A stretch of DNA of 64,000 bases from Alphaproteobacteria bacterium (GCA_035509415.1 DATJLQ010000001.1:101-64100); one strand, 5' to 3'; positions 27,238 through 50,333 are shown, numbered from the stretch's first letter. The notes: generated by a model not told the origin, from the sequence alone. Numbers and translations: made by a program.

Positions 27238-27259
27238 CGCGCGGCGCGGGAGGACATCC

Positions 27260-28291: not shown

Positions 28292-28300
28292 GAGCTGCCC

Positions 28301-29295: not shown

Positions 29296-31212
29296 TCAGA
29301 GCGTCCGGGCGAGCACCTCGAACGAGGAGGCGGCGCGGGCATTGGCTTGGGCGGCCAAACGCACCGGCGTGTTGGCGGCGCCGAACAGGTCGTAGTTGCG
29401 CCGCTCGACGATCTCGAAGAAGAAGCGGTCCTCGAAGGTCGCGGTGTAGGCGTGGAAGAACTCGCCGCCGGCCTGGCCGCGGTCGTAGAGCACGTTGAGC
29501 TCGCGCATGCGCTCGAGCGCGGGTGCTGGAATGTCGAAGCGCGCGCCGAGGTCTTCGTAGTAGTTCTTCGGGATGTCGAGGAAGGAGACGCCGCGGTCGC
29601 GCGCGCGCTCGACGAAATCGAGCAGGTTCGCGGTTTCGAGCGCGATCTGCTGGATGCCGGCGCCGCCGAATGCGCCCATGAAGCTCACGGCCGCGGTCGA
29701 TCCGCCCTCGGCGACGTTGAGCGGGATGCGGATCTGGCCGTCGCGCGAGCGCACGACGCGGCTCGAGAGGGCGCCGTAGGGATCGGCGAGCTCGATCTGG
29801 GGCTCGCTCACGAAGCCGAACATGGCCTTGTAGAACAAGAGCCAGGTGAGGAATTCGCCGCGCCGCACGACGTTGGAGAAATGGTCGATGCGCGTGAGCG
29901 GACCCGGCACCGTGGGCCCCAGGGGCACGAAATCGCGCTCCCAGATCGACGGGCCCGAGCGCGCGCCGGGCGCGGGCACGAAATAGATCAGGCTGTTCTC
30001 GATTCCCGCGATCGCCGGGATCAGCGTCTCGCCCTGGCCGATGCGCCCGTAATAGGTGCTCGAGCCGAGCGCGTTGGCGCGCTCGAGCGCGCGCTCCGGC
30101 TCGTCGAAGCGCAGCGCCATGGCGCACACCGAGGTCCCGTGCACCAAAAAGAAGGAATGGGCGAAGCTGTCGGTCTCGCGGTTGACCACGATGTTAACGT
30201 CGTTCTGGCGGTAGAGATCGATGTCCTTGCTGCGATGATGGCCCGCGCGCGCGAAGCCGAGCCCCTCGAGAAGCTTGGCGAGCCGCCCGGCCTCCTTGCC
30301 GCCCGAGGCGAACTCGACGAACTCGATGCCGCGGACCTGGGCGGGTGGCGGCATCGGCGCCCCCGACGGCGTCGCCGGCACCGTCACGGACGGATGCGCG
30401 CGCCGCAGCGCCTCGCCGCACAGCTCGAGCGAGCGCATGCCGTCGAGGGCGATGCCCGAGACCGAGGCGCCGCGGAACTGGTCGTTGAAGATCACGAGCG
30501 AAACCGGCCCGCTGTAGCCCGTGCGCACGACCGCCTCGAGGAACGGCTCGATCGGCCAGTCGCCCTGGCCGGGAAAGCAGCGGTGATGCCGGCTCAAGGA
30601 CATCGGGTCCATCACCAGCGCCGGCGCGTCCGCGATTTGGACCAGCGCGATGCGGTCGCCCGGCAACGACGAGATCGTCTCGATCGGGCCGTTGCGCACC
30701 AAAGTGTGGAAGCTGTCGAGCACGAGGCCGAGATTGGGCCGGTCGGCGAGACGCACGATGTCCCACGCCTGGGTCCATTCGCGCACGTGGGTGCCCCAGG
30801 CGAGCGCCTGGTAGCCGATGCGCAGCCCGCGCGCCTGGGCGCGGTCGGCGAGCAGCGCCAGGTCCGCGGCGGCGCGCTCCACCCCGTCGAGCGCCTCGGG
30901 TGCGACGTTCGAGCACACGCAGAGAAGCCGCGTGCCGAGCTCGTCCATCAGGTCGAGCTTGCGGCTCGCGCGCTCGAGGTTGCGCGCGCGTTGCGGCTCG
31001 GGCATGGCCTCGAAGTCGCGCAGCGGCTGGAGGGCCACGATCTCGAGCCCGAGGCCCTCGGCCATGCGGCGCACGTCGCGCGGCGAGCCGTTGAAGAAGG
31101 TCAGGTCGTTCTCGAACAGCTCGACGGCGCGGAAGCCGGCCTTGGCGACCGCCATCAGCTTGGCCTCGAGGGTCCCGCCCAGGGACGCCGTCGAGATCGA
31201 CCATTTGAGCAT
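29296..31212 (-). CDS. quiC: 3-dehydroshikimate dehydratase, fused QuiC1 type (sugar-phosphate isomerase/TIM-barrel N-domain + HPPD/VOC-like C-domain)
   Basis: 638 aa. The N-terminal 280 aa are xylose-isomerase-like TIM barrel (AsbF-like). The C-terminal 350 aa are 4-hydroxyphenylpyruvate-dioxygenase-like. Same architecture as Pseudomonas QuiC1. Confidence 0.8.
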   Translation of the reverse strand: MLKWSISTASLGGTLEAKLMAVAKAGFRAVELFENDLTFFNGSPRDVRRMAEGLGLEIVALQPLRDFEAMPEPQRARNLERASRKLDLMDELGTRLLCVCSNVAPEALDGVERAAADLALLADRAQARGLRIGYQALAWGTHVREWTQAWDIVRLADRPNLGLVLDSFHTLVRNGPIETISSLPGDRIALVQIADAPALVMDPMSLSRHHRCFPGQGDWPIEPFLEAVVRTGYSGPVSLVIFNDQFRGASVSGIALDGMRSLELCGEALRRAHPSVTVPATPSGAPMPPPAQVRGIEFVEFASGGKEAGRLAKLLEGLGFARAGHHRSKDIDLYRQNDVNIVVNRETDSFAHSFFLVHGTSVCAMALRFDEPERALERANALGSSTYYGRIGQGETLIPAIAGIENSLIYFVPAPGARSGPSIWERDFVPLGPTVPGPLTRIDHFSNVVRRGEFLTWLLFYKAMFGFVSEPQIELADPYGALSSRVVRSRDGQIRIPLNVAEGGSTAAVSFMGAFGGAGIQQIALETANLLDFVERARDRGVSFLDIPKNYYEDLGARFDIPAPALERMRELNVLYDRGQAGGEFFHAYTATFEDRFFFEIVERRNYDLFGAANTPVRLAAQANARAASSFEVLARTL

Positions 31213-31219
31213 TGCAGTA

Positions 31220-31298
31220 ATCTCCTATATTTCGGAGATAATCATATAACTACGCAATTTGAAAATAAAGCGGATTTGACGTAGGGTCGCCGGGCGAC
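31220..31298. promoter_or_regulatory. quiC/gntR divergent control region with palindromes and AT-rich box
   Basis: ATCTCC-N8-GGAGAT (31220-31239). AT-rich AATCATATAACT (-10-like for both directions). GTCGCCgGGCGAC palindrome (31286-31298). Confidence 0.35.
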
Positions 31299-31321
31299 TC
31301 TTTCCGAGCGGATGGGCGGCA

Positions 31322-32071
31322 ATGAGCGACGGAGCGGAACGGGCTGCCGGTTCGGCGACGCTGACGGAGGCGCTCCAGGAGCGTATCCGCCAGGATATCA
31401 TCTTGGGCGCGCTCGAGCCAGGCGCCAAGCTCCGGCTCGAGCGTCTGCGCAAGATTTACGGCGCGAGCGTCAACACGCTGCGCGAGACGCTCTCGCGCCT
31501 CGCCTCGGAGGGGCTGGTCGTGGCCGAGGGCCAACGCGGCTTCGCGGTGCTGCCGGTCTCGCTCGAGGATTTGCGCGACATCACCTACATGCGCCAGCTT
31601 CTCGAGTGCCATGCGCTCCGGGTCTCGATCGAGCATGCCGACCTCGACTGGGAGGCGCGCGTGGTGGGCGCCTACCACAAGCTTTCCAAGATCGACAACC
31701 TGGTCGAGGATCGCCCCGACGAATTCGGCGACGCGTGGGAGAAGTACAATCAGGAATTCCACGAGGCGCTGATCTCGAATTGCGGCTCGCGTTGGCTCGC
31801 GTTGTTCCACCGGGCCATGTACGACCACAGCCGGCGCTACCGCATGCTCTCGCTCAAGACCAAGCCGTTCCCGCGCTCGCAATCGGCCGAGGAGCACAAG
31901 GCTATTCTCGAGGCCGCGATCGCGCGCGACGCGGACCGGGCTTGCGCGATCCTCCAGGCTCACATCCTCAAGGGTGCCGATCTCGATCAGCCCGGCGAAG
32001 TGGCGGCCAAGGCGCAAAAGCGCGGCGCCGCGCGCCGGCGCCAGGGCAACGCGAGTGCCAAGCAGAAATAG
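31322..32071 (+). CDS. GntR-family (FadR/FCD subfamily) transcriptional regulator
   Basis: 249 aa with N-terminal wHTH (LRLERLRKIYGASVNTLRETLSRLASEGLV) and C-terminal FCD domain. Divergent from quiC. Confidence 0.9.
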   Translation: MSDGAERAAGSATLTEALQERIRQDIILGALEPGAKLRLERLRKIYGASVNTLRETLSRLASEGLVVAEGQRGFAVLPVSLEDLRDITYMRQLLECHALRVSIEHADLDWEARVVGAYHKLSKIDNLVEDRPDEFGDAWEKYNQEFHEALISNCGSRWLALFHRAMYDHSRRYRMLSLKTKPFPRSQSAEEHKAILEAAIARDADRACAILQAHILKGADLDQPGEVAAKAQKRGAARRRQGNASAKQK

Positions 32072-32098
32072 CGCCGCGCCGAGGAGCGCCGTCCGCGC

Positions 32099-33859
32099 TC
32101 ACACGGTCGCGACGTGGGAAATGCCCTTTCCCGGCGAATAGATGTCCAGAATGTTCCAGTGGCCGGCGGTCGGCGTCGGGTTGTTGACCATCGCGACGTC
32201 GATCACCGAAGGCCGGCCCGAAGCGATCGCCTCCGCGAGCGCGGGCTTGAACTCGGACGCCTTGCGGATGCGGATGCCGTGGACGCCGTAGCCGCGCGCG
32301 ATCGCGGCATAGTCGGGCATGAAGGGCCCGCCCGTCTCCGGGAAGGTCGTGCCGTAGGTCAGGCCGAAATGCGCCTTCTGCAGGCCCGCGATCGTGCCGA
32401 AGGCGTTGTTGTTCATGACCACCCAGATCACCGCGAGATTTTCCTCGGCCGCGGTCGCGAGCGTCGCGGGGTTCTGGCCGAAGCCGCCGTCGCCGACGAG
32501 CGAGACCACCACCCGGTCCGGCCGCGCGATCTTGGCGCCGAGCGCCGCGGGCGGGCCGAATCCCATGGTCGCGTAGCCGCCGGGGGTCAAGATGCTGCCG
32601 GGCGTATAGATGGGGAATTGCTGGCCGACGCCGTTCTTGTTCCAGCCCACGTCGGTCGTGACGATGGCGTCGCGCGGCAGCACCTCGCGCACTTCGGCGA
32701 GGATGCGCTCGGGCATCATCGGGAACGCCTCGCTCCGCACCATCTCGAGATTGGCCCGACGCTGCTCGGCGCGATAGGCCGCGATCTCGCGCTCGAGCGC
32801 CTCGTTGCGGCGCGCGCGCGGCACGAGCTCGCGCGCGATCCGGTTGAGCGTCTTGAGCGCCTGCTTCAAGTCCGCGACCGCGCCGATCGCGGTCGGGAAA
32901 TTGCGCCCGATCTCGCTCGGCTCGATGTCGATGTGGATGAGCTTCGAGGGCGGGAAGCTGAAGGTGTATTTGGGCTCCCAGGAGCTGCTGTCGGCCTCCT
33001 TGAAGCGCGTGCCGAGGCCGAGCATCCAATCGGCGCCGAGGCACTTCGCGTTGATGAACTTGGTACCCCAGAAGCCGGTCATGCCGAGGACGAGCGGATG
33101 GTCGTCGGGCAAGGCGCCCTTGCCCATGAGGCTGTGGGCGACCGGGATCGCGAGATGGTCGACCAAGGCGCGTAGCTCCTCCGCCGCCTGGGCCAGCACG
33201 ACGCCGCCGCCGACATAGATCACCGGCCGCTTCGCCGCGGCGAGCGTGCGCACGATCTCGGCCGCGACCGCGGCGTCGATGTCCGGCTTCGCGATCGACT
33301 TCGCGTTGAGGGCCAGCCGGTCGAAGCGCTCGACGTCCACCTCGCGCGAGAAAATGTCCATCGGCACGTCGACCAGGACCGGTCCCGGCTGACCCGATTC
33401 CGCGAGCTGGAACGCCTTCTCGATGATCTCGGGGAACAGCTCCGGGCTCTCGACGCGCCAGGCGCGCTTCACGAACGGGCGATAGATCTCGAACTGGGTC
33501 GCGTCGCCGTGGAGGTTGACCTCCTGGTGCGGATGCTTGCCGTAGTAATGGCTCGGGATGTCGCCCGCGATCACCACCATGGGAATGCAGTCGAGGGCCG
33601 CGTTGGCGACCCCGGTCGCGGCGTTGGTCAGGCCCGGGCCGAGATGGGTCAGGAGCACCGAGGCCTTCCCGGTCACGCGCGCGTAGCCGTCGGCGGCGTG
33701 CGCCGCGATCTGCTCGTGCCGCACGGTGACGAACTGGATCTTGCTGTTCGCCATCGCCGAGAGCACCGCGATGTTGGTGTGGCCGCACAGCCCGAAGACG
33801 TGGGTGATGCCGCGGCCTTCGAGGTAGCGGACCAGCTGATGGGAGACGAGATCGCGCAT
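32099..33859 (-). CDS. Thiamine-diphosphate-dependent enzyme (acetolactate-synthase-like; sulfoacetaldehyde acetyltransferase / oxo-acid lyase-type candidate)
   Basis: 586 aa from internal Met (MRDLVSHQL...) of the 1101-aa fused ORF. TPP motif GDGGFGQN-X22-NNNAFG and a central FAD/ADP-like domain. Confidence 0.85.
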   Translation of the reverse strand: MRDLVSHQLVRYLEGRGITHVFGLCGHTNIAVLSAMANSKIQFVTVRHEQIAAHAADGYARVTGKASVLLTHLGPGLTNAATGVANAALDCIPMVVIAGDIPSHYYGKHPHQEVNLHGDATQFEIYRPFVKRAWRVESPELFPEIIEKAFQLAESGQPGPVLVDVPMDIFSREVDVERFDRLALNAKSIAKPDIDAAVAAEIVRTLAAAKRPVIYVGGGVVLAQAAEELRALVDHLAIPVAHSLMGKGALPDDHPLVLGMTGFWGTKFINAKCLGADWMLGLGTRFKEADSSSWEPKYTFSFPPSKLIHIDIEPSEIGRNFPTAIGAVADLKQALKTLNRIARELVPRARRNEALEREIAAYRAEQRRANLEMVRSEAFPMMPERILAEVREVLPRDAIVTTDVGWNKNGVGQQFPIYTPGSILTPGGYATMGFGPPAALGAKIARPDRVVVSLVGDGGFGQNPATLATAAEENLAVIWVVMNNNAFGTIAGLQKAHFGLTYGTTFPETGGPFMPDYAAIARGYGVHGIRIRKASEFKPALAEAIASGRPSVIDVAMVNNPTPTAGHWNILDIYSPGKGISHVATV

Positions 33860-33900
33860 GGGATCCTCGCAATCGGTGCGCGCCGAGGCGCGCCCCGCGA

Positions 33901-35307
33901 CTAAAGAGCGTCGGTGCCGAAGAACTCGCCGAACAGCTCCTGCTCCGTCGGCCGGTCCTCGGCGATCGGTCGGCTGACCCAGGTGACGTTCATGTAGTGG
34001 CGCAGGTTGATGTTCTCGTTGGTGATGTTGCCGCCCCAGATGCCGCAGCCGAGGCTCGAGGTCATCGGCATGCCGTTGTTGAAGGCGCCCGCGTTCGCCT
34101 TCGACTGGGGTTGGCGCACCATGATGCGGCTGACCGGGGCCACGCGCGCGAGCCGGTCGACATGGTCGTCGTCGAACGAGTAGATGCCGCACGAGTGGCC
34201 CTTGCCGCCGACCTCGTAGATATCGTGCACCATCTGGAGCGCTTCGTCGAAGGTCCGGTACTTGAAGACCGCGAGCACGACGCACAGCTTCTCGCTCGAG
34301 AACCGGTGCTGCTTGCCGATCGCGTCCTGGCGTACGAACAGGAACACGCGGTCGGCCGGAATCGCGAAGCCGGCGCGCTCGGCGATGCGTTGCGCGGAGA
34401 TCGCGATGGTGTCGGGCCGGCGATGGCCCTCCTCGTCCCACAGCGCCTTCTCGAGCAGCGCCTTTTCGCGCTCGTCGCAGAGGTAGCCGCCCTCCTTCTG
34501 GAGCTGCGCGATCATCGCGTCGTAGAGCTTGGCGTCGACCAGCATGTTGCCGTCCGCCGAGCAGCCCGAGCCGAAATCGGAGGTCTTGCTGATGCGCGTG
34601 TTGCGCGCCGCATCCGCCACGTCCGCGGTCTCGTCGACCAGGACGGTCGAGTTCCCGGCCCCGACCCCGAAGGCGGGCCGGCCCGAGCTGTAGGCGGCCT
34701 CGACCATGGGCCGTCCGCCGGTCGCCATGGTAAGGTCGCAGGTCGACATCAGCTCGGCCGTGAGCGGGATGCTGGGCTTCCACACGCATTGGAACAGGTC
34801 CTCGGGGGCGCCCAGGCTCTTGAGCGTCTTGCGCATCACCTCGACCATCTCGTAGGTCGTCTGCCGGCTGCGCGGGTGCGGCGAGAAGATCACCGCGTCC
34901 TTGCATTTGAGCGCGTAGATCGCGGTCACCGGCGGCGTGAGCTCGGGATTGGTGGTCGGCACCAGCGAGACGATCACGCCCGCGGGCTTCGCGTACTTGA
35001 CCAGCCCTTTGGCTTCGTCGACCTCGATCACGCCCATGCTTTTCTGGCGCAACGCGTCGCGCAGCACGCCCTGGATCTTGAAGCGCTTGGCGCCGCGGCC
35101 GGCGCGGTCGCCGATGCCGCTCTCGTCGACGCCCATCTGGGCGATGCGCAGGAAGGTCTTCTCGTTGCCGGTCGCCCAGCCGATCGCCCGGCACAGCCGG
35201 TCGATCCGGGCCTGATCGTAATCCGCGACCGCGGCCATTGCCGCGCGCGCCTTGGCGAGAAGCTCGTGCGCGAGCACCCGCTCCTCGGGCGTGATGTCCC
35301 TGGCCAT
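33901..35307 (-). CDS. Aldehyde dehydrogenase, CoA-acylating type (EutE/PduP/SauS/SucD-like)
   Basis: 468 aa, ALDH superfamily, of the short (~470 aa) acylating subclass. Catalytic Cys in SDFGSGCSADGN. Confidence 0.75.
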   Translation of the reverse strand: MARDITPEERVLAHELLAKARAAMAAVADYDQARIDRLCRAIGWATGNEKTFLRIAQMGVDESGIGDRAGRGAKRFKIQGVLRDALRQKSMGVIEVDEAKGLVKYAKPAGVIVSLVPTTNPELTPPVTAIYALKCKDAVIFSPHPRSRQTTYEMVEVMRKTLKSLGAPEDLFQCVWKPSIPLTAELMSTCDLTMATGGRPMVEAAYSSGRPAFGVGAGNSTVLVDETADVADAARNTRISKTSDFGSGCSADGNMLVDAKLYDAMIAQLQKEGGYLCDEREKALLEKALWDEEGHRRPDTIAISAQRIAERAGFAIPADRVFLFVRQDAIGKQHRFSSEKLCVVLAVFKYRTFDEALQMVHDIYEVGGKGHSCGIYSFDDDHVDRLARVAPVSRIMVRQPQSKANAGAFNNGMPMTSSLGCGIWGGNITNENINLRHYMNVTWVSRPIAEDRPTEQELFGEFFGTDAL

Positions 35308-35355
35308 GATCGACGCGTCCTCCGCTCGATGCCGCCGACGCGGCGGCGGCGCGCG

Positions 35356-35739
35356 CTAGCGGGTCGGCAGGAATCCGGGCGGCGCGTAGCACCACAGCAG
35401 CCACAACGGCTCGTTGCCGTCGTTGTAGTGGACGTGCGCGTTGCCGGCGGGGATGAAGATCCAGTCGTTCTGCTTGAAGCGCATCTCGGTGCCGGCGGTG
35501 CGGTCGTAGGCGATGCCGCCGCCGCGGATCGCGACGTTGATTTCCTCGGAGCCCGGGTGATTGTGCTCGGCGCAGCGCTCGCCGGGCTCGAACACGGTCA
35601 GGCCGGCAACCATCTGCGAAGCGCCCACGCGGTCCTTGTCGATGAGCCTGAAGACCTTGCGCCGCAACCCCTCCTCGCCGAGGCCGAGCCAGATTTCCTT
35701 GGCGTCCTTGAAGGGGTCGAGGATTTGAATCTTGTTCAT
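35356..35739 (-). CDS. Cupin-domain protein (cupin_2), small
   Basis: 127 aa with metal-binding His motif HNHPGSEE...H. First gene of the cupin-ALDH-TPP operon. Confidence 0.8.
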   Translation of the reverse strand: MNKIQILDPFKDAKEIWLGLGEEGLRRKVFRLIDKDRVGASQMVAGLTVFEPGERCAEHNHPGSEEINVAIRGGGIAYDRTAGTEMRFKQNDWIFIPAGNAHVHYNDGNEPLWLLWCYAPPGFLPTR

Positions 35740-35837
35740 CGAGGTTCCTCCCTGACGCGCGCGGCGCCTCTTCTCGGGTTCCGATCGCCGCGCGGCCGCA
35801 TTACCGCCGATCGGCCCGCGCGCCGCAATCGATGGAG

Positions 35838-35889
35838 CGTAAACATCCTATGTTTCGCGTTTACGCCAAAAATGTACCATTTTGTACAT
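35838..35889. promoter_or_regulatory. Operator-like palindromes upstream of the cupin operon
   Basis: Nested palindromes CGTAAAC-N14-GTTTACG and AAACAT-cct-ATGTTT (35838-35865). ATGTAC-N6-GTACAT with A/T flanks (35872-35889). An AT-rich ATCATATAT box follows at about 35911. Confidence 0.45.
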
Positions 35890-36019
35890 CTCGGCGCCGA
35901 ACCGTGTCAATGGCAGGAACATCATATATTTTTCGAAATATGGAAAAGCATTCGGAATCCGTCGCGTACGCGACGCGGCGCGTCGGCGCCCGGGCCAAGC
36001 CGGCCCGGAGTCGCAACCG

Positions 36020-37210: not shown

Positions 37211-37253
37211 GCGGGTCGCTTCGTCATGCCGGGCGCGTTCCCATGCCGGCGCG

Positions 37254-38201: not shown

Positions 38202-38351
38202 GGCCGATCTCCTCGCGCTCGCGCCGGCCGCGCGCGGCCGACGCCGCCTTGCCATGTCGCGCCGAAATCGCGCGCGGCGCCGCGTGCGGAGCCGTGATTG
38301 ATAATCTCGGGTCGGTTGACTGTCAACTCGCGGCCAAGTGCGCGCGGCTCC

Positions 38352-39729: not shown

Positions 39730-39779
39730 GCGGCGCGGACCGCGGTCTCCCTCCGGGGCGGCGCCGCTGTTTTGGCTCG

Positions 39780-40878: not shown

Positions 40879-40998
40879 GCCGCACCCGCCGATTGCGGCA
40901 CGCAAGCGAATCCAGGCGGCCGTCCGCGGACGGTCGCCTGGACGCACGAACGGGATAGCGGCGCGCCGCCTTCGGCGCGCTGCGAGGGGATCCTGCCG

Positions 40999-41517
40999 AT
41001 GAGAGGGGAATCCGCCTTGACGCACTGGGGCCGGTGGCTGCGGCGGCGCGCGGAGAACGTCGCGGTGGCCCTCCTCGCGACCATGTTCGTCGCCTTCATC
41101 GTCCAGATCGTCTTCCGCTACGTGTTCGATTACCCGGTCGGCTGGACCGTCGAGGTCAGCACCGTCACGTGGCTCTGGACCGTGCTGTGGGGGGCCGCGT
41201 TCGTGCTCTCCGAGCGCGACGAGATCCGCTTCGACATCGTCTACGGCAGCGTGCCCGAGCGCTGGCGGCGCCGCTTCACGATCGTCACCGGGATCGCGCT
41301 CGTGGCACTCTACGGCGCGTCGCTGCCGGCCGCCTACCGCTACGTCGCCTTCATGAAGATCGAGACCTCGACCTATCTCCACATTCCGATCGATTACCTC
41401 TACTCGATCTACATCATCTTCGCCGTCGCCTGCATTTGCCGCTACGGCTGGCTGGTCTGGCGCGCGCTCCATAGGGCGAAGTCGCCGGTCACCGACCCCG
41501 CCAGGCTGGCGGACTGA
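40999..41517 (+). CDS. TRAP transporter small permease (DctQ family)
   Basis: 172 aa, 4 TM. Confidence 0.8.
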   Translation: MRGESALTHWGRWLRRRAENVAVALLATMFVAFIVQIVFRYVFDYPVGWTVEVSTVTWLWTVLWGAAFVLSERDEIRFDIVYGSVPERWRRRFTIVTGIALVALYGASLPAAYRYVAFMKIETSTYLHIPIDYLYSIYIIFAVACICRYGWLVWRALHRAKSPVTDPARLAD

Positions 41518-41519
41518 CC

Positions 41520-42818: not shown

Positions 42819-42822
42819 CGCC

Positions 42823-43755
42823 GTGAACGGACCCTTCCCCGCGCAGCACGGCACGCCGTCCGGCAGGACAGCCGCGACGGGGAGCGCGCTCGTGGGCCTC
42901 ATCGGCGCCAATATCAAGAGCTCGCTCTCGCCAGCGCTCCACGAGGATGCGTTCGCGGCGGCGGGCCTGCGCGGCCATTACCATCTCATGGATCTCGATC
43001 TTCTCCCCGGCCGCACGCTCGCCGAGCTGCTCGCTTCCGTGCGCGCCGCGGGCTTCGCCGGCGTCAACGTCACCTATCCCTGCAAGGAGGCGGTGCTACC
43101 GCTGCTCGACGCGGTGTCGGCGGAGGCGCGCGACATCGGCGCCGTCAACACGGTCACGATCGCGCCCGACCGCTCGACCGTGGGCTACAACACCGACCGG
43201 ATCGGATTTCGGCGCGCCTTCGAGGAGACGTTCGGGCGCGGCCCGGTCGAGGGGGCGACGGCGCTTCTCATCGGCGCGGGCGGCGCCGGCCGCGCGGTCG
43301 CGTTCTCGCTCTTCGATCTCGGCGTCGCGACCCTCCTGGTCCACGACCTCGCTCGGACGCGCGCGGTCGCCCTTGCCGACGAGCTCGCGCAGCGCTTCGG
43401 CCCGGGCCGCGCGCGCGCGGCGAGCGATGCCGCCGCCGCTCTCGCCGAGGCCGCTGGCGTGGTGAACGCGACGCCGGTGGGCATGCTCGGCATCCCCGGC
43501 AACCCCGTGCCCATGGCGGCGCTCGAGCCGCGCCACTGGGTCGCGGACGTGATCTACACGCCGCTCGAGACCCAGCTCGTCACGGGTGCCCGCGCGATCG
43601 GCGCCCGCGCCATGGGCGGGTCCGCGATGTGCGTGCACCAGGCGGCGGAATCGTTCCGCCTCTTCACCGGCCTCGTCCCCGACATCGCGCGTATGCGCCG
43701 CACCTTCGCCGACGCCGCCGCCGCGCGCGAAGCCACGCTCGCGCGCGCGGGCTGA
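42823..43755 (+). CDS. Shikimate/quinate 5-dehydrogenase family protein (AroE-like paralog)
   Basis: GTG start 4 nt after the dctM stop. Substrate-binding N-domain (SLSPALHE) and Rossmann GAGGAGRAV. Confidence 0.85.
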   Translation: MNGPFPAQHGTPSGRTAATGSALVGLIGANIKSSLSPALHEDAFAAAGLRGHYHLMDLDLLPGRTLAELLASVRAAGFAGVNVTYPCKEAVLPLLDAVSAEARDIGAVNTVTIAPDRSTVGYNTDRIGFRRAFEETFGRGPVEGATALLIGAGGAGRAVAFSLFDLGVATLLVHDLARTRAVALADELAQRFGPGRARAASDAAAALAEAAGVVNATPVGMLGIPGNPVPMAALEPRHWVADVIYTPLETQLVTGARAIGARAMGGSAMCVHQAAESFRLFTGLVPDIARMRRTFADAAAAREATLARAG

Positions 43756-44113
43756 GCGCGGCCCCGGCACGTTTTCAGCGTTTCCGCGTTATGGAGCGTC
43801 GGGCGGCCGCGCGACCGCGCACGGCGTTGCGCGCAGCCTTGCCCGCGCATCGTCCCGCCCGCGCGCGCCCCGGCTTGGGCGCCGCAAGGCCTGAAGCCCC
43901 GCTTTCCCAATGAAATAGGAGATTTTCTTGAATATCATATAATCGCGTTGATTTCTCCGCGCGTGCCACTTAGGCTCCGATGCCGAGCCCGGCGGAACGG
44001 GCGGGCGCTTCGGCGCCTTCCGCCCGCCGGGCCCGGATGCTACAAAAGCTGCCCGGGTCGCGGGCCACCGCCGGTTCCGGGCAACAACGACAACGAGACC
44101 CAAACGGGAGGAA

Positions 44114-45265
44114 ATGATCATGAAATCGTTCGTCGCGGGCGTCGCCATCGCGGGCGCCGCCCTCATCCTGTCGCCCATCGCCGCGCGCGCCGCGGATACG
44201 GTGCTCATCCCCTATGTGGGCGAGCTGTCCGGGCCCGGCGCCGTCTCCGGCACCAACTTCCGCGACGGCATCGTCCTGGCCGAAGAGGAGATCAACGCCA
44301 AGGGCGGCATTCTCGGCAAGAAGATCGACACGCCGATGTACGACACCCAGAGCGACGCGAGCGTCTCGCGCGCCCAGATCCAGAAGGTGCTCGACGAGCA
44401 TCCCTACGTGATCCTGGGCCCGGTCTATTCCGGCTCGGTCGTGGTCGACATGAAGCTGACCCAGGCGGCCGAAATCCCCGAGATCGTCGGCGGCGAGGCG
44501 GGCAACATCACGACCCAGGGCGACCCCTACGTGTTCCGCACCTCGTTCGGCCAGCAGTTCAGCATGCCGATCATCGCGAACTACATGGCCGACCAGCTCA
44601 AGATCAAGTCGGTCGCGGTGGTGTGGGTCAACAACGATTTCGGCAAGGGCGGGCGCGACGCCTTCGACAAGGAGATGGCCAAGCGCGGCATCAAGGTGGT
44701 CGTCGACGATTCGACCGAATCGGGCCAGACCGACTTCTCGGCCGACGTGGTCAAGGTCAAGGCGGCCAACCCGGACGCGGTGTTCGTCTATCTCAACGAG
44801 GAGGAAAGCGCGCGCTTCCTGCGTGAGGCCAAGAAGCAGGGCCTCCATAAGCCGCTCATCGGCGAGACCACGCTCCTGGGCCAGATCGTGATCAAGCTCG
44901 CCGGCGACGCCGCCAACGGCGTGCGCGGACATGTCGGCCTCACGATCGACGCGCCGATTCCGGCGGTCAAGGCGTTCGCCGAGCGCTTCCACAAGCGCTT
45001 CGGCTATTACTGCGATCATAACGGCATCAAGGGCTATACGGCCGTCTACATGATCAAGTACGTGACCGAGAAGATGGGCAAGTTCGATTCGAAGCTGTTT
45101 GCCACCACCCTCCATGGGCTCACCATCACGCCCAAGGAGGAGCCGAACATCCTGATGACGGCGACCTGGGACAAGAACGGCGACATCTACCGCGAGAGCT
45201 TCCTCGGCGAGGTCGTCGACGGCAAGCAGAAGATCGTGCAGATTCTGCCCGCGCTCAAGCCCTAG
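44114..45265 (+). CDS. ABC transporter substrate-binding protein, Liv (branched-chain amino acid / aromatic acid) family
   Basis: 383 aa with signal peptide and periplasmic binding protein type I fold. Confidence 0.9.
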   Translation: MIMKSFVAGVAIAGAALILSPIAARAADTVLIPYVGELSGPGAVSGTNFRDGIVLAEEEINAKGGILGKKIDTPMYDTQSDASVSRAQIQKVLDEHPYVILGPVYSGSVVVDMKLTQAAEIPEIVGGEAGNITTQGDPYVFRTSFGQQFSMPIIANYMADQLKIKSVAVVWVNNDFGKGGRDAFDKEMAKRGIKVVVDDSTESGQTDFSADVVKVKAANPDAVFVYLNEEESARFLREAKKQGLHKPLIGETTLLGQIVIKLAGDAANGVRGHVGLTIDAPIPAVKAFAERFHKRFGYYCDHNGIKGYTAVYMIKYVTEKMGKFDSKLFATTLHGLTITPKEEPNILMTATWDKNGDIYRESFLGEVVDGKQKIVQILPALKP

Positions 45266-45329
45266 GCACGGCCCGACCGCTCAAGGGCCCGGCGTCCTCG
45301 CAGGGGCGCCGGGCCGCCGAGGGATAATA

Positions 45330-46208
45330 ATGGTCGCGCTCATTCAGCTTCTGGTCTCCGGGCTCGCGACGGGCGCCATCTACGCGCTCGCCGCGGTCGG
45401 CTTCACCCTGCTTTGGCAGACCTCGCAGACGATCAACTTCGCCCAGGGCGAGTTCGTCATGCTGCCCGCCTTCTTCGTGCTCGCGGCGATGAAGTTCCTC
45501 GGCCTCGGCTTCTGGCCGGCGTCCCTCCTGGGCGTGCTGCTCTCGGTCCTGGTGCTCGGCCTCCTGTTCAAGCGCCTGGTGGTCGACCCGATGCTGCGCC
45601 ACGGCCTCCTGCCGCTCGTGATCTCGACCATCGCGCTCTCGCTCCTTCTCAAGGAGTCGGTCAAGGATTTCTACAGCCCGCAGGCCCAATCCTTCCCCTC
45701 GATGGTCGAGGCGCGCGACCTCCATGTGCTGGGGGCGGCGATCTCGACCCAGAGTATCGCCGTGATCGGCGCCGCGGTCATTGCGATCGCGGCGTTGCAC
45801 GTCTTCCTCCACTCGACGCGCGTCGGCCGCGCGATGCAGGCGACGGCGCAGAACCCGACGGTCGCGCGCATTCTCGGGATTCCGGTCGAGCGCATGATCC
45901 TCTACACCTTCCTGATCAACGCGGTCCTCGTGGCTCTCGCCTCGCTCCTGGTGAGCCCGATCTATCTCGCAAAATTCACCAACGGCGAGACGCTCGGCCT
46001 CGCGGCCTTCATCGCCGCCATCGTGGGCGGCTTCAACCAGGTGCGCGGCGCCATCCTCGGCGGCGTCATCCTCGGCATCCTCGACAACCTGACCGCGGCC
46101 TATCTCTCGGCCCAGTATCGCGGCGCGATTCCGCTCGTGCTGCTCATCGTCGTGATCCTGTTCCGGCCCCAGGGCATCTTGGGCCGGGTCGAGGAGCGCA
46201 CGGTATGA
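45330..46208 (+). CDS. ABC transporter permease (LivH-like)
   Basis: 292 aa, 8 TM. Confidence 0.9.
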   Translation: MVALIQLLVSGLATGAIYALAAVGFTLLWQTSQTINFAQGEFVMLPAFFVLAAMKFLGLGFWPASLLGVLLSVLVLGLLFKRLVVDPMLRHGLLPLVISTIALSLLLKESVKDFYSPQAQSFPSMVEARDLHVLGAAISTQSIAVIGAAVIAIAALHVFLHSTRVGRAMQATAQNPTVARILGIPVERMILYTFLINAVLVALASLLVSPIYLAKFTNGETLGLAAFIAAIVGGFNQVRGAILGGVILGILDNLTAAYLSAQYRGAIPLVLLIVVILFRPQGILGRVEERTV

Positions 46209-47191
46209 CGCGCCTCGGCGTGCTGTGCGCGGCCCTCGTCCTTGGGGCCGCCTGCGTGCTCCCCTTCTTCCTCGAGCCCTACGGCATCTATCTCCTGAGT
46301 GTCTGGGCGGTGACCTCGATCGCGGCCCTCGGGCTCAATCTCACCCTCGGCTATGCGGGCCAAATCTCGCTCGCCCAAGGTGCGTTCGTCGGCATCGGCG
46401 CCTATGTGGTGGCGCTCCTGACCAAGGGTGGGGTGCCGTTTCCGATCGCCTTCGCGGCCGCGGGTGCGGCCGCCTTCGCGGTCGGCTGGTGCTTGGGATA
46501 TCCGGCCCTCCGGGTCCAGCACCACTATCTCGCCTTCGTGACCCTCGCCTTCACCACCCTCGTGTTCCTGGTTTTGCGCAACGAGGAATGGCTCACGGGC
46601 GGCACCTACGGAATCAACGGCATCGCGCGGCCCGACGTCCTCGGCTGGTCGACCGAGCCCGCGCGCGCCTATTACTTTTTTTGCCTGGCGCTCATGGTGG
46701 TCGCGGCGGCGGCGTTCTGGGCCATGCTGCGCTCGCCCTGGGGCCGCGCCTTCGTCGCCTTGCGCGAGAACCCGGTGCGGGCACTCTCGCTCGGCGTCGA
46801 CACGCGGCGCTACACGCTCATGGCGTTCGCGATCGGCTCGGCCTTCGGCGGCATCGCGGGCGCGCTCGACGCGCCGCTGGTCCAGTTCATCGAGCCCAAC
46901 TCCTTCGCGCTCGGCCTCTCCTTCAACCTGCTGCTGATGGTGATCGTGGGCGGCGCCGGCACCTTCTTCGGGCCGTTCGTCGGCGCCATGGTCGCGGTAT
47001 TGCTGCCGGAATGGTTGCGCATCGCCCAGGCCTATTACCTGATCCTCTACGCGCTCGCGGTGATGGTGCTGATGGCGTTCTGTCCGTCGGGCATCCTGGG
47101 CCTGGTACGGCGCATCGGCGACGCGGCGCGCGCCCGGCGCACCGCGCTCGCGCGCGCGGCGGCGGCGAACGCGGCCGGGGGCTCGAAATGA
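46205..47191 (+). CDS. ABC transporter permease (LivM-like)
   Basis: Internal ATG overlapping the previous stop (ATGA). MTRLGVLCAALVLGAAC..., multi-TM. Confidence 0.88.
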   Translation: MTRLGVLCAALVLGAACVLPFFLEPYGIYLLSVWAVTSIAALGLNLTLGYAGQISLAQGAFVGIGAYVVALLTKGGVPFPIAFAAAGAAAFAVGWCLGYPALRVQHHYLAFVTLAFTTLVFLVLRNEEWLTGGTYGINGIARPDVLGWSTEPARAYYFFCLALMVVAAAAFWAMLRSPWGRAFVALRENPVRALSLGVDTRRYTLMAFAIGSAFGGIAGALDAPLVQFIEPNSFALGLSFNLLLMVIVGGAGTFFGPFVGAMVAVLLPEWLRIAQAYYLILYALAVMVLMAFCPSGILGLVRRIGDAARARRTALARAAAANAAGGSK

Positions 47192-47931
47192 GCGCGGTGC
47201 TCGAGGTCTCGGCGCTCAAGAAATCCTTCGGCGGCATCCTCGCGGTCGACGGCGTCTCCTTCTCGGTCGAGGAAGGCGAAATCCTCGGCATCATCGGCCC
47301 GAACGGCTCGGGGAAATCGACGCTCTTCAACTGCGTCCTCGGCCAGATGCGCCCCAGTGCCGGCGAGGTGCGGGTCGACGGGCGCCGGGTCACGGGCATG
47401 CGTCCCTGCGATCTCAACCGGCTCGGGGTCAGCCGCACCTTCCAGCTCTTGCAGGTGTTCCCCGAGCTCTCGGTGCGCGATAATCTGATCCTCGCGGGCC
47501 AGGAGCATCGCGGCACCATGCTCTCGCGCCTCCTCGGCCACCCCGACGCGGGCCTCGGCGCGGCGGCGGAGCGCATGATCGCGTTCTTCGCCCTCGGCCA
47601 CCTCGAAAACGAGAAGGCGGGCCGCTTGAGCTACGGCCAGCAGAAGCTGCTCGATGCCGCGATGGCGTTCATGGCGGGCCCGCGCCTGGTGCTCCTCGAC
47701 GAGCCCGCGGGCGGCGTCAATCCGAGCATGCTCGGCCAGCTGGCCGAGCGCTTGCGCGCGATCAACGCGGAGCAAGGGGCGACTTTCGTCGTGATCGAGC
47801 ACAACATGGACTTCGTCATGTCGCTGTGCAGCCGGATCCTGGTGCTCGCCGAAGGGAAGATCATCGCCGAGGGGACGCCCGAAGCGGTGCGCCGCGATGC
47901 CCTCGTGATGGAGGCCTATCTTGGCCGCTGA
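47188..47931 (+). CDS. ABC transporter ATP-binding protein (LivG-like)
   Basis: Walker A GPNGSGKST and signature LSYGQQK. ATGA overlap. Confidence 0.9.
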   Translation: MSAVLEVSALKKSFGGILAVDGVSFSVEEGEILGIIGPNGSGKSTLFNCVLGQMRPSAGEVRVDGRRVTGMRPCDLNRLGVSRTFQLLQVFPELSVRDNLILAGQEHRGTMLSRLLGHPDAGLGAAAERMIAFFALGHLENEKAGRLSYGQQKLLDAAMAFMAGPRLVLLDEPAGGVNPSMLGQLAERLRAINAEQGATFVVIEHNMDFVMSLCSRILVLAEGKIIAEGTPEAVRRDALVMEAYLGR

Positions 47932-48679
47932 CGCCGCAGCGCCCGACGCTACGCCGATCCTCGAGCTCGACGGGATCGTCGCGGGCTACGGGGCCATGAC
48001 CATCCTCCACGGCACCTCGTTCAAGGTGCGGCGCGGCGCGATCACCACCGTGATCGGGCCCAACGGCGCGGGGAAGTCGACCGTATTCAAGACCGTGTTC
48101 GGCCTGCTCAAGGCGCGCGCGGGGCGCGTGCTGTTCGACGGCGCCGACGTCACCAACGCGAGCCCGCGCCGCCTTCTCGATCTCGGCATGTGCTACGTGC
48201 CCCAGGGACGCAACATCTTCCCCGAGCTCAGCGTGCGTCATAACATCGAGCTCGGCGCGGTGTCGGCGCGCCGCGACGTCGACGTGGGCGCGCGCGTCGA
48301 CGCGGCGATGGAGCGGTTTCCGGTCTTGAAGCGCAAGGCGGGCCACCAGGCGTCGACCTTGAGCGGCGGCGAGCAGAAGCTGCTCGAGATCGCGCGCGGC
48401 CTGTTGCTCGATCCGAAGCTCATCCTGATCGACGAGCCCTCGATCGGCCTCTCGCCCATCATGGCGGCGGAGACTTTCGCGATCCTCAAGGAGCTGCGCG
48501 CCCAGGGTCGCTCGATCCTCATGGTCGAGCAGAACGCGAAGAGTGCCCTCGGCATTTCGGACGACGGGCTGGTGCTCGAGCTCGGGCGCGCGCGCCTGGC
48601 GGCACCCGCCGCCGCCATGCTCGCCGACCCGCGGGTCGGCCATCTGTTCCTGGGCGGCGCCATGGAGGGGACGGCGTGA
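47921..48679 (+). CDS. ABC transporter ATP-binding protein (LivF-like)
   Basis: Walker A GPNGAGKST and signature LSGGEQK. Confidence 0.9.
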   Translation: MAADAAAPDATPILELDGIVAGYGAMTILHGTSFKVRRGAITTVIGPNGAGKSTVFKTVFGLLKARAGRVLFDGADVTNASPRRLLDLGMCYVPQGRNIFPELSVRHNIELGAVSARRDVDVGARVDAAMERFPVLKRKAGHQASTLSGGEQKLLEIARGLLLDPKLILIDEPSIGLSPIMAAETFAILKELRAQGRSILMVEQNAKSALGISDDGLVLELGRARLAAPAAAMLADPRVGHLFLGGAMEGTA

Positions 48680-49428
48680 GCGGGACCGGCCCGGCATCGG
48701 GGGGAATGGCGGGCCAGGTCGCGATCGTGACCGGCGGAGCGCGCGGCATCGGGCTCGGCATCGCGCGGCGGCTCGCGGCCGAGGGATGCAAGGTCGCGGT
48801 GTGGGACTGGAACCTCGAGCCGCTCGCGGCGGGGGGATACGCGCCCGAGGGCGCGTGGCAGGTCGACGTCACGGACTATGCCGCGGTCGAGCGCGCGGCG
48901 GGCGAGGTTGCGGCGCGGTTCGGCGCCATCCAGATCCTGATCAACAATGCGGGCGTGAACGGGCCGGTCCTGCCGGCCTGGGAATACCCGCTCGGGGAAT
49001 GGCAACGCGTGCTCGCGGTCGACCTGACGGGCGTGTTCCATTGCTGCCGCGCGGTGGTGCCCCATATGCGGAGGAAAGGCTACGGCCGCATCGTCAACAT
49101 CGCCTCCATCGCGGGGAAGGAGGGCATGCCCGGCATTGCCGCCTACTCCGCGGCCAAGGCGGGTGTCATCGGCTTCGCCAAGGCGCTCGCGCGCGAGCTC
49201 GTGACCGCCGGCATCACGGTCAATTGCCTGACGCCGGGGATCACCGAGACCGAGCTGTTCCGCGAGATGACCGAGGAGCACATCGCGAGCGCCAAGAGCC
49301 GCATCCCCATGGGCCGCTTCTGCACGGTTGACGAAATCGCGGCGATGACGGCCTATGTCGCGAGCCCGGAATGCAGCTTTACCACGGGTGCCGTGTTTGA
49401 TCTTTCGGGCGGGCGCGCGACGTATTAA
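48676..49428 (+). CDS. SDR-family oxidoreductase (FabG-like)
   Basis: 250 aa with TGGARGIG and the YSAAK catalytic motif. Translationally coupled to the ABC operon. Confidence 0.9.
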   Translation: MSGTGPASGGMAGQVAIVTGGARGIGLGIARRLAAEGCKVAVWDWNLEPLAAGGYAPEGAWQVDVTDYAAVERAAGEVAARFGAIQILINNAGVNGPVLPAWEYPLGEWQRVLAVDLTGVFHCCRAVVPHMRRKGYGRIVNIASIAGKEGMPGIAAYSAAKAGVIGFAKALARELVTAGITVNCLTPGITETELFREMTEEHIASAKSRIPMGRFCTVDEIAAMTAYVASPECSFTTGAVFDLSGGRATY

Positions 49429-49490
49429 ATAGGCGCTCGGCCGCTCGGCCGTCCCGCCTGTCCGCCGCCCCGCCCCAAGGAGACCCGTGC

Positions 49491-50333
49491 ATGTCCCACC
49501 CCGATCGCTTTCTGCTCGCCGGCGTCATGGGCTGGCCGGTGATGCATTCGCGTTCGCCGAAGCTCCATAATTTCTGGCTTGCCGAGCACAATCTCGCGGG
49601 CGCGTACCTGCCGCTCGCGATCAAGGTCGAGCGGCTCGGGCCCGCGTTGCGCGCCTTGCCGGCGCTCGGCTTTTCCGGCTGCAACCTCACCATCCCCCAC
49701 AAGGTCGCGGCCCTCGACATCGTCGATCGGATCGACCCCGCGGCGAAGCACATGGGCGCGATCAATTGCGTCGTGGTGGAAGCGGACGGCTCGCTCTCCG
49801 GGTTCAACTACGACAGCTTCGGCTACACCCAATGCCTCCGCGAGGCGCACCCCGAGTGGCGCGCGGATGCGGGCCCGATCGCCGTCATGGGCGCCGGCGG
49901 CGGGGCGCGCGCGGTGCTCACCAGCCTCATCGAGCGCGGCGCCAGGGAGATCCGCCTCGCGAACCGCACGCCGTCGCATGCCGAAGCGCTCGCGCGCGAT
50001 CTCGGCGGGCCGATCCGCATCGTCCCATGGTCCGAACGTCACGCAGCACTCGACGGCGCAACGCTCCTGGTCAACGCGACGAGCCAGGGCATGGTCGGAA
50101 ACCCGCCTCTCGATCTCAAGCTCGACAAGCTGCCGAAGGCGGCGCTCGTCTCCGACATCATCTACATTCCGCTCGAGACGCCGCTCCTCGCCGCCGCGCG
50201 CGCGCGCGGCAACATGACGGTCAACGGACTCGGCATGCTGCTCAATCAGGCGCGGCCCGCGTTCAACGCCTGGTTCGGCGTGATGCCCGAGGTGACGCCT
50301 GCGTTGCGCAAGATGATCGAAGCCACGATCTGA
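49491..50333 (+). CDS. aroE: Shikimate dehydrogenase
   Basis: 280 aa with MHSRSPKLHN, NLTIPHK and GAGGGARAV, the classic AroE. Confidence 0.88.
   Translation: MSHPDRFLLAGVMGWPVMHSRSPKLHNFWLAEHNLAGAYLPLAIKVERLGPALRALPALGFSGCNLTIPHKVAALDIVDRIDPAAKHMGAINCVVVEADGSLSGFNYDSFGYTQCLREAHPEWRADAGPIAVMGAGGGARAVLTSLIERGAREIRLANRTPSHAEALARDLGGPIRIVPWSERHAALDGATLLVNATSQGMVGNPPLDLKLDKLPKAALVSDIIYIPLETPLLAAARARGNMTVNGLGMLLNQARPAFNAWFGVMPEVTPALRKMIEATI

Follow-up and report, generated by a model that had tools for sequence, protein, structure and literature searches.

Quinate and shikimate are abundant plant acids, and in the textbook account bacteria degrade them by way of protocatechuate, a route that needs oxygen for ring cleavage. 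Their fermentation by anaerobes has nevertheless long been known physiologically, for example in Ilyobacter insuetus (cited in PMC10512730). Two described systems open alicyclic rings with the help of thiamine diphosphate (TPP): in myo-inositol catabolism a dehydrogenase is followed by the dehydratase IolE and then by the dione hydrolase IolD (PMC9430895), and cyclohexane-1,2-dione hydrolase, or CDH, itself a TPP enzyme, physiologically cleaves cyclohexane-1,2-dione (PMC12247030). Here we describe a stretch of 64,000 nucleotides from an Alphaproteobacteria bacterium (GCA_035509415.1, DATJLQ010000001.1:101-64100; hereafter the window), which carries an island for quinate and shikimate use and, within it, a TPP enzyme resembling acetolactate synthase (ALS). 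The explanation of the whole that we favour, at somewhat better than even chances, is an island with two exits: one leading through a QuiC1-type dehydratase to protocatechuate, the other through a non-aromatising module built around the TPP enzyme. That this module degrades hydroaromatic compounds is the firmer part of the reading and is probable. The broader proposition, which we place just short of an even chance, is that it represents an undescribed but widespread oxygen-independent, non-aromatising route from quinate and shikimate via 3-dehydroquinate to acetyl-CoA and 2-oxoglutarate, and thus the enzymology behind the known anaerobic fermentation. No such route was described in the full-text literature searched, a coverage that excludes subscription journals.

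The thiamine-dependent module and its conserved linkage

Genes were called by the frame bias of third-position GC (GC3) and each was verified with Pfam and NCBIfam, since at a G+C content of 65-70% spurious frames crowd the raw lists of open reading frames (ORFs). The same gene order, with an identical QuiC1 protein, was found on two metagenome contigs, and the arrangement is therefore not an assembly artefact. Every element that the original prediction had named in the island was recovered in place, including its GntR and TetR regulators (both by Pfam) and its two transporter-dehydrogenase modules (39892-43755 and 44114-50333). The genes of the island are as follows:

29296-31212, minus strand: QuiC1-type 3-dehydroshikimate dehydratase, fused to a domain like 4-hydroxyphenylpyruvate dioxygenase (HPPD) (Pfam AP_endonuc_2 and Glyoxalase_5)
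31322-32071, plus strand: GntR/FCD regulator (Pfam GntR and FCD), divergent from QuiC1 and convergent with the TPP gene
32099-33859, minus strand: ALS-like TPP enzyme with three TPP domains (Pfam)
33901-35307, minus strand: CoA-acylating aldehyde dehydrogenase (ALDH), best NCBIfam matches all acylating (SauS, 459 bits against a cut-off of 600; AdhE; EutE)
35356-35739, minus strand: small metal cupin of 127 aa (Pfam Cupin_2), between the CoA-transferase and ALDH genes and absent from the original prediction
36020-37210, minus strand: family III CoA-transferase (Pfam CoA_transf_3, 377 bits; under all NCBIfam equivalog cut-offs)
37254-38201, minus strand: lyase (DRE-TIM) resembling 3-hydroxy-3-methylglutaryl (HMG)-CoA lyase (Pfam HMGL-like; PRK05692, 273.4 bits against a cut-off of 246)
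38352-38807, minus strand: type II 3-dehydroquinate dehydratase, aroQ (Pfam DHquinase_II, 176 bits)
39073-39729, plus strand: TetR regulator (Pfam TetR_C_29), at the head of the operon for the tripartite ATP-independent periplasmic (TRAP) transporter and shikimate/quinate dehydrogenase (SDH)
39892-40878, plus strand: DctP (Pfam)
40999-41517, plus strand: DctQ (Pfam)
41520-42818, plus strand: DctM (Pfam)
42823-43755, plus strand: SDH paralog 1 (PRK12549, 317 bits against a cut-off of 235)
44114-45265, plus strand: LivK (Pfam)
45330-46208, plus strand: LivH (Pfam)
46205-47191, plus strand: LivM (Pfam)
47188-47931, plus strand: LivG (Pfam)
47921-48679, plus strand: LivF (Pfam)
48676-49428, plus strand: short-chain dehydrogenase/reductase (SDR) oxidoreductase (NCBIfam SDR/FabG-like subfamily)
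49491-50333, plus strand: shikimate dehydrogenase paralog 2, AroE class (NF001312, 336 bits against a cut-off of 295)

The TPP enzyme scored under every NCBIfam cut-off, whether for ALS (TIGR00118, 435 against 538 bits) or for Xsc (314 against 620 bits), and its matches in the PDB were to plant ALS (277 bits) and to CDH (2PGN, 177 bits). Its sequence did not place it among the dione hydrolases of the IolD/CDH kind, and the likeness to them proposed below is one of working mode only. Nor did it fall among the biosynthetic ALS enzymes, all ALS models being below cut-off and neither ilvN nor ilvC occurring among the scanned window genes. CDH itself had been considered, prompted by a 72% match in Aromatoleum diolicum 22Lin, and was rejected, the solved CDH matching at only 177 bits. 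The family has an invariant C25-G-H27-T-N motif at a site where plant ALS has G-G-A-S, and its members share 70-86% identity across Alpha-, Beta- and Deltaproteobacteria, Bacillota and Chloroflexia; the closest named homolog of the window enzyme belongs to a metagenome-assembled genome (MAG) of Pseudorhodoplanes (83% identity). RefSeq names the protein only 'thiamine pyrophosphate-binding protein', and NCBIfam held no specific model for the family as of June 2026.

A profile of the family, run against species-representative genomes, picked out relatives of this enzyme in at least 576 stretches. The best 80 of these (loci L003-L082), which share 70-85% identity with the window enzyme, are spread over Alpha-, Beta- and Deltaproteobacteria, Bacillaceae, Sporomusa, Pelosinus, Anaerospora, Ca. 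Formimonas, Phycisphaerales and Chloroflexia. The plasmid collection yielded one ortholog, on pAZKH of Azoarcus sp. KH32C; its other matches were paralogs of 35-54% identity. Neighbours within 10 kb of the TPP gene were located by tblastn with the window proteins and by clustering the ORFs of the 10-kb flanks, with cluster representatives checked by Pfam; full flanks were available for 50 of the 80 loci. Counts among the 80 loci were:

acylating ALDH, adjoining the TPP gene at 57-82% identity: 56
286-aa AP_endonuc_2 TIM barrel, IolI-like (best PDB match IolI, 52 bits): 56
AroE/SDH-family dehydrogenase: 41
HMG-CoA-lyase-like lyase: 38
TRAP DctP: 37 (DctM, 32)
type I dehydroquinase: 25
zinc-dependent alcohol dehydrogenase (Zn-ADH): 22
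citrate-synthase-like lyase (in RefSeq, 'citryl-CoA lyase'): 19
CoA-transferase: 18
type II dehydroquinase: 16
NAD-dependent aldehyde dehydrogenase (NAD-ALDH): 14
fused QuiC1: 12
standalone HPPD-like protein (split QuiC1; in several loci beside a separate TIM barrel): 8

A dehydroquinase of either type was present in 39 of the 80 loci and in 30 of the 50 with full flanks, and in the latter set a dehydroquinase and/or SDH occurred in 39, an ALDH in 44 and a lyase in 37. Biosynthetic aroD, aroQ and aroE are normally single-copy genes, and for this reason the linkage to dehydroquinase and SDH is not attributable to chance. The same recurrent linkage ties the CoA-transferase, HMG-CoA-lyase-like, ALDH and TPP genes to the island, where the original prediction had placed them. 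Representative operons read SDH, HMG-CoA-lyase-like lyase, ALDH, aroD, TPP enzyme and TIM barrel in Ca. Formimonas; LacI, Zn-ADH, DctPQM, HMG-CoA-lyase-like lyase, TPP enzyme, TIM barrel and ALDH, with aroD, in Sporomusa and Pelosinus; IclR, HPPD-like protein, TIM barrel, CoA-transferase, 'citryl-CoA lyase', TPP enzyme, shikimate dehydrogenase and aroD on the Azoarcus KH32C plasmid; and LacI, NAD-ALDH, TPP enzyme and aroD in Priestia megaterium. The module, as we define it, combines a TPP ortholog of no less than 70% identity with an enzyme that oxidises an aldehyde, a lyase of the retro-Claisen type, a dehydroquinase, either SDH or Zn-ADH, and either a TIM barrel or a cupin. The window carries the whole conserved set (TPP enzyme, acylating ALDH, HMG-CoA-lyase-like lyase, aroQ, two SDH and the cupin), and the same sets recur in L003-L082 and in the additional loci L083-L086. 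In Sporomusa, Pelosinus, Anaerospora, Desulfobacteraceae, Geobacteraceae and Ca. Formimonas, known as anaerobic lineages (Sporomusa, Pelosinus, Desulfobacteraceae and Ca. Formimonas as obligate anaerobes), no QuiC1 was found within 10 kb of the TPP gene.

In four roles of the module, one enzyme is replaced by another with no homology to it: acylating ALDH by NAD-ALDH with CoA-transferase, or by an aldehyde:ferredoxin oxidoreductase (AFOR); HMG-CoA-lyase-like by citryl-CoA-lyase-like lyase; SDH by Zn-ADH; and the IolI-like TIM barrel by a cupin. Acylating ALDH and NAD-ALDH occurred together in one locus, the first alone in 55 and the second alone in 13 (p = 9e-8); the two lyases occurred together in one locus and alone in 37 and 18, respectively (p = 1e-5); and SDH and Zn-ADH shared two loci (p = 3e-6), all three Fisher values being indicative only, as the 80 loci are not phylogenetically independent and significance is overstated. 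NAD-ALDH accompanied the CoA-transferase (odds ratio 11), which in loci other than the window goes with a non-acylating ALDH, and the acylating ALDH avoided it. A CoA-transferase 77% identical to that of the window occupies the same position in L003. Even so, the replacements define the functional roles of the module: an initial dehydrogenase, a dehydroquinase, a TIM barrel, the TPP enzyme, an enzyme turning aldehyde into acyl-CoA and a retro-Claisen lyase.

The cupin of the window has a metal site formed by H59, H61, E65 and H102, and its structural model (pLDDT 94) adopts a generic cupin fold; a Foldseek search of the PDB with this model gave no match more specific than generic small metal cupins (TM1459, DddK, ectoine synthase and putative sugar-phosphate isomerases). 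Among 96 cupin homologs found, those in L015, L064, L084 and L086 adjoin the TPP gene and that of L085 lies in the same cluster. All five of these loci carry a dehydroquinase, and none of the six, the window included, has the TIM barrel, for which the cupin consequently appears to substitute. In the window itself a search for an IolI-like TIM barrel found none; its one signal was QuiC1, weakly similar (E = 1e-4) in its N-terminal domain. In the Thermodesulfobacteriota MAG (L084, GCA_040755515.1) the operon consists of dehydroquinase II, cupin, TPP enzyme, AFOR and SDR, the tungsten-type AFOR (11338-13191; AFOR_N/AFOR_C) lying directly downstream of the TPP gene, where other loci have an ALDH; a multihaem cytochrome gene was seen nearby. 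With three unrelated aldehyde oxidisers beside the TPP gene, the product of the TPP enzyme is argued to be an aldehyde. The Clostridia MAG carries a citrate-synthase-like lyase, IclR, CoA-transferase, ALDH, Zn-ADH, TPP enzyme, cupin, Liv transporter and dehydroquinase II, and one metagenome contig with the cupin has a similar gene set. The TPP genes of the Thermodesulfobacteriota and Clostridia cupin loci are 51-54% identical to the window enzyme. In L085 the TPP gene is split into three ORFs, probably by frameshift errors of long-read assembly; at 16124-18378, beside the cluster, the same locus holds an ORF of more than 971 aa, in which NB-ARC/AAA, shikimate kinase and dehydroquinate synthase domains make up an AROM-like fusion that includes a STAND-type NTPase region.

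A proposed oxygen-independent ring opening and its alternatives

The original prediction had suggested that protocatechuate might be routed through a non-canonical downstream pathway. The unusual genes do belong to the island, as it supposed, but the comparative evidence favours a branch departing at 3-dehydroquinate and bypassing protocatechuate altogether, because in anaerobes the module sits with dehydroquinase at loci that show no QuiC1 within 10 kb. Protocatechuate would also be an unsuitable substrate on chemical grounds, since both lyase types need a tertiary 3-hydroxy-acyl-CoA, for which C1 of quinate provides and protocatechuate does not. Both would cleave 3-hydroxy-3-substituted acyl-CoAs, and among the hydroaromatic intermediates only quinate and 3-dehydroquinate should offer the required C1(OH)(COOH) centre.

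In the route we propose, the two transporters, the two AroE-family dehydrogenases and the type II dehydroquinase would take up quinate and shikimate and oxidise them to 3-dehydroquinate and 3-dehydroshikimate, with dehydroquinase returning the shikimate-derived dehydroshikimate to dehydroquinate. At the first exit, QuiC1 would form protocatechuate in a parallel aromatising branch, the dioxygenase of which, if any, would lie beyond the window. At the second, the cupin, TPP enzyme, acylating ALDH, CoA-transferase and HMG-CoA-lyase-like lyase would, as in myo-inositol catabolism, open the alicyclic ring without oxygen. A metal-dependent dehydratase would eliminate the C5 hydroxyl of 3-dehydroquinate to give 1-hydroxy-3,4-dioxocyclohexane-1-carboxylate, which amounts to the chemistry of dehydroshikimate dehydratase on a saturated ring; the step would fall to the cupin in the window, as a dehydroquinate dehydratase or isomerase, and to the IolI/IolE-like TIM barrel in most relatives. 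The TPP enzyme would then hydrolyse the C3-C4 bond, as IolD and CDH do in their own substrates, to yield homocitrate semialdehyde, which the acylating ALDH would convert to homocitryl-CoA and the lyase would split into acetyl-CoA and 2-oxoglutarate. Any opening at C3-C4 or C4-C5 would yield a homocitrate skeleton, so that seven carbons would part as two and five. The proposed route is atom-balanced and needs no further enzymes, although the exact intermediates are put forward tentatively. Its independence of oxygen fits the obligately anaerobic lineages and the adjacency to an oxygen-sensitive tungsten-type enzyme.

If the route is as proposed, it would explain the anaerobic use of quinate and shikimate and would give a function to a family labelled 'acetolactate synthase-like', and to its neighbours, in at least several hundred species-level genomes. 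Some aerobes would hold both aromatising and non-aromatising branches, and the short conversion of a C7 plant acid to acetyl-CoA and 2-oxoglutarate would be of interest for pathway engineering. What would be new is the extension of thiamine-dependent alicyclic ring opening to hydroaromatic acids.

Several points weigh against the two-exit reading or parts of it. The scheme was inferred from gene identities, conserved linkage and substitution patterns, and the shared ancestry of the loci weakens the substitution statistics, as stated above. By sequence, CDH (177 bits) is a more distant relative of the TPP enzyme than the acetolactate synthases (277 bits) are, and IolD is not among its 25 best NCBIfam matches. 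The IolI-like TIM barrel, the most conserved partner of the TPP gene, is absent from the window; the case for its replacement by the cupin rests on six loci, and the sequence and fold matches of the cupin are generic, its best PDB sequence match being the cupin domain of gentisate 1,2-dioxygenase (53.9 bits). The window combines the acylating ALDH with the CoA-transferase, a rare pairing (4 of 80 loci) that the simplest scheme leaves unexplained; the CoA-transferase might pass CoA from one carboxyl to another or activate acids like homocitrate in their free form. Within 10 kb, five of the 50 full-length loci have no SDH, dehydroquinase or Zn-ADH, and some loci have no lyase or dehydrogenase. 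The Priestia megaterium locus is one without a nearby lyase. Finally, QuiC1 is by sequence a clear ortholog of the Pseudomonas putida enzyme, a PcaD-like gene lies 5 kb upstream with a CMD-family gene (both within 23397-24902), and the classical protocatechuate route, with pcaGH elsewhere, may operate as well. In the minimal module of the bacilli (L024 and L025; P. megaterium and Bacillus sp. RC) neither a lyase nor a TIM barrel or cupin lies within 10 kb; these strains either encode the remaining steps at another place or end the pathway in a different product.

The alternative that survives best, although it is improbable, is that the island is classical only: SDH, AroQ and QuiC1 would lead to protocatechuate, a pcaGH, ligAB or praA would lie beyond the window, and the TPP, ALDH, CoA-transferase and HMG-CoA-lyase-like genes would be unrelated neighbours. 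QuiC1 matches the characterised P. putida QuiC1 (PDB 5HMQ) over its full length (606.6 bits, residues 3-629) and by gene spacing is a transcription unit apart from the TPP operon, the upstream PcaD-like enol-lactonase is at the borderline of its family (TIGR02427, 255.3 against a cut-off of 255.85) and has the CMD-family gene beside it, and pca genes are often unlinked from qui genes. The window is indeed devoid of a recognisable ring-cleavage dioxygenase, as had been predicted: neither Dioxygenase_C (PcaGH) nor LigB domains were present in the scanned genes of the 64 kb, a scan that left aside a few short or flanking ORFs, and no PcaGH, LigAB or PraA domain placed the scanned genes in a beta-ketoadipate or meta-cleavage route of protocatechuate. 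Chance adjacency, however, cannot produce the linkage of the TPP gene to dehydroquinase or SDH seen in 39 of the 50 loci with full flanks, which span many phyla, nor the same module in typically anaerobic lineages at loci without QuiC1. A working protocatechuate branch is compatible with the two-exit reading, and the evidence contradicts this alternative only in so far as it calls the TPP operon unrelated.

A second alternative retains protocatechuate as the substrate of a non-canonical route, in which the ring would be cleaved by the cupin, acting as a small dioxygenase, or the TPP enzyme would act on a keto tautomer, and the ALDH, CoA-transferase and lyase would process the product. The gentisate 1,2-dioxygenase match of the cupin is in its favour, as are JGI records that label some cupin homologs 'gentisate 1,2-dioxygenase' or 'putative monooxygenase' and the presence of fused or split QuiC1 in 20 of the 80 TPP loci. 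Yet the other 60 loci have no QuiC1-type gene, and the cupin occurs in only six loci, the TIM barrel standing instead in 56. The cupin loci, moreover, include the Thermodesulfobacteriota AFOR operon, the Clostridia MAG and a bacterium from a UASB (upflow anaerobic sludge blanket) reactor, which argues against a need for oxygen. Protocatechuate would present no tertiary hydroxyl to lyases of the HMG-CoA or citryl-CoA type, and we know of no precedent for attack by thiamine on the keto tautomer of a catechol. We regard this alternative as quite unlikely. Least credible of all is that the TPP enzyme and acylating ALDH form a sulfoacetaldehyde or sulfoacetate module (Xsc- and SauS-like), or that the former is a biosynthetic ALS, placed in the island by chance: SauS (459 bits) is what the ALDH matches best, Xsc (314 bits) and ALS (435 bits) are matched by the TPP enzyme, and a TauE/SafE-family exporter follows aroD in Azoarcus KH32C, but the scores fall short of the curated cut-offs (SauS 600, Xsc 620, ALS 538), no ilvN, ilvC, pta or sulfite-handling gene occurs among the scanned window genes, and the linkage to dehydroquinase, SDH and retro-Claisen lyases would go unexplained.

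Upper pathway and surroundings of the island

By spacing, the genes of the island appear to fall into five units: QuiC1 with a lactonase; cupin, ALDH and TPP enzyme; CoA-transferase and HMG-CoA-lyase-like lyase, perhaps with aroQ; TetR, TRAP transporter and SDH; and Liv transporter, SDR and AroE. QuiC1 has the domains of its architecture at residues 21-260 and 290-557. It scored below the NCBIfam equivalog cut-off NF042435 (683.8 against 1200 bits), which is very strict, and its assignment still stands on architecture and the match to the solved enzyme. In several Betaproteobacteria the TPP operon contains adjacent genes for an HPPD-like protein and a 'sugar phosphate isomerase/epimerase', that is, a split QuiC1 (L083, 7964-9667, on the Azoarcus sp. 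KH32C plasmid pAZKH; L030, L047, L069 and L076), which suggests a role of its own for the HPPD-like domain in hydroaromatic catabolism.

The aroQ product exceeded its curated type II cut-off (NF003806, 204.9 against 171 bits), and we assign it as the catabolic copy, which would interconvert dehydroquinate and dehydroshikimate. The lyase at 37254-38201 belongs to the HMG-CoA lyase subfamily, the model of which leaves the substrate unfixed. Both AroE-superfamily paralogs have Shikimate_dh_N and NAD(P) domains and score above curated cut-offs; they are 33% identical to one another. Paralog 1 begins 4 bp past the end of DctM. Paralog 2, being above the equivalog cut-off for shikimate dehydrogenase, could double as the biosynthetic enzyme; its homologs (56-60% identity) adjoin Liv genes in L068 and L070. 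The Liv genes overlap one another, and the SDR gene overlaps LivF by 4 bp, translationally coupled, with homologs of 54-64% identity in L038 and L042. A Liv module adjoins the TPP gene in L003, L011, L012, L041, L057, L058, L068, L070 and L073. Homologs of the GntR/FCD regulator (48-50% identity) occur in L003-L006; the TetR regulator is a 218-aa gene on the identical metagenome contigs, and its cluster occurs in 11 of the 80 loci. A scan of 28200-44200 for sigma-70 promoters and terminators gave counts equal to those in shuffled sequence, and the intergenic inverted repeats were GC-rich and uninformative, so that no operator is proposed.

Two genes bordering the island are of uncertain membership:

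27260-28291, plus strand: GFO/IDH/MocA oxidoreductase, IolG-like (Pfam GFO_IDH_MocA)
28301-29176, minus strand: SMP-30/gluconolactonase-like lactonase (Pfam SGL, 278 bits)

The lactonase gene follows QuiC1 on the same strand after 119 bp, and its homologs were found in two of the 80 TPP loci. The oxidoreductase, whose best NCBIfam match is IolG (140 bits, below the cut-off of 355), has homologs of 38-56% identity within 10 kb of the TPP gene in eight of the 80 loci, and is possibly an accessory ring dehydrogenase. It is the last gene of a separate, tight four-gene operon (24054-28291, plus strand) that also encodes the PcaD-like enol-lactonase, an AptA-type omega-aminotransferase (724 bits) and an Amidohydro_2 protein, the last resembling, as judged by eye, gamma-resorcylate and 2,3-dihydroxybenzoate decarboxylases. 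The CMD-family gene (23397-23945, minus strand) diverges from this operon, and the combination of genes is unusual.

Further upstream, 18060-22565 holds a gene for an FAA-hydrolase-family protein adjoining a major facilitator superfamily (MFS) transporter, a Glu/Leu/Phe/Val dehydrogenase, an acyl-CoA dehydrogenase, homologs of which (29% identity, cluster C37) recur in a few TPP loci, and a 267-aa gene without a Pfam match that was also called on the identical metagenome contig L001. A metal-uptake neighbourhood (5749-16513) comprises a Fur-family regulator, a DUF1007 protein, TonB-ExbB-ExbD, a TonB-dependent receptor with CarboxypepD_reg, and a ZnuA/ABC-3 type transporter with two permease genes. 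On the other side, 3 kb from AroE paralog 2, lies pheA (prephenate dehydratase; 53207-54082, minus strand), beyond an EmrAB-like efflux pair (50358-53038). The remainder of the window includes groESL, the metal uptake genes, the efflux pump, pheA, kdsB and an Opp transporter.

Comparison with known systems

The island is most readily compared with the qui/qsu systems, in which QuiA/QsuD, QuiB/QsuC and QuiC1/QsuB feed the beta-ketoadipate pathway through protocatechuate. It shares with them the AroE-family dehydrogenases, the type II dehydroquinase and the fused QuiC1, and likewise has dedicated transporters and regulators. It differs in that no pcaGH or ligAB was found in its 64 kb and in the five extra genes between QuiC1 and aroQ, which in other phyla are conserved partners of dehydroquinase.

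With the Iol system the module shares an order of enzymes for a hydroxylated cyclohexane ring (dehydrogenase, metal-dependent TIM barrel or cupin, ALS-like TPP enzyme, and an ALDH yielding a CoA ester), and IolI and IolG are the best matches of the conserved TIM barrel and the nearby GFO oxidoreductase, respectively. However, no protein of the module reaches an Iol family cut-off, and the kinase and aldolase (IolC, IolJ) are lacking; a retro-Claisen lyase stands in their place, and the dehydroquinase and AroE-family genes mark a carboxylated substrate. The proposed likeness to CDH of strain 22Lin lies in an ALS-like TPP enzyme that, as part of an anaerobic pathway, hydrolyses an alicyclic 1,2-dione to an aldehyde-acid, and His27 of the family falls about where CDH has His28, a position read from HMMER coordinates, not from a residue-by-residue alignment. 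A. diolicum 22Lin carries, separately from CDH, an ortholog 72% identical to the window enzyme beside SDH and aroD (L030), and the window enzyme is therefore a paralog distinct from CDH.

The window lyase passes the cut-off of the HMG-CoA lyase subfamily, and a citrate-synthase-like lyase takes its place in 19 loci, but no genes for leucine or isoprenoid degradation lie near it and homocitryl-CoA is not an established substrate of either family. Sulfoacetate degradation by SauS and Xsc resembles the module in the best family match of its ALDH and, distantly, in its TPP enzyme, and both systems would handle a 2-substituted acetaldehyde with an anionic group; the module differs in scoring below both cut-offs, in having no sulfonate-related genes and in its association with hydroaromatic genes.

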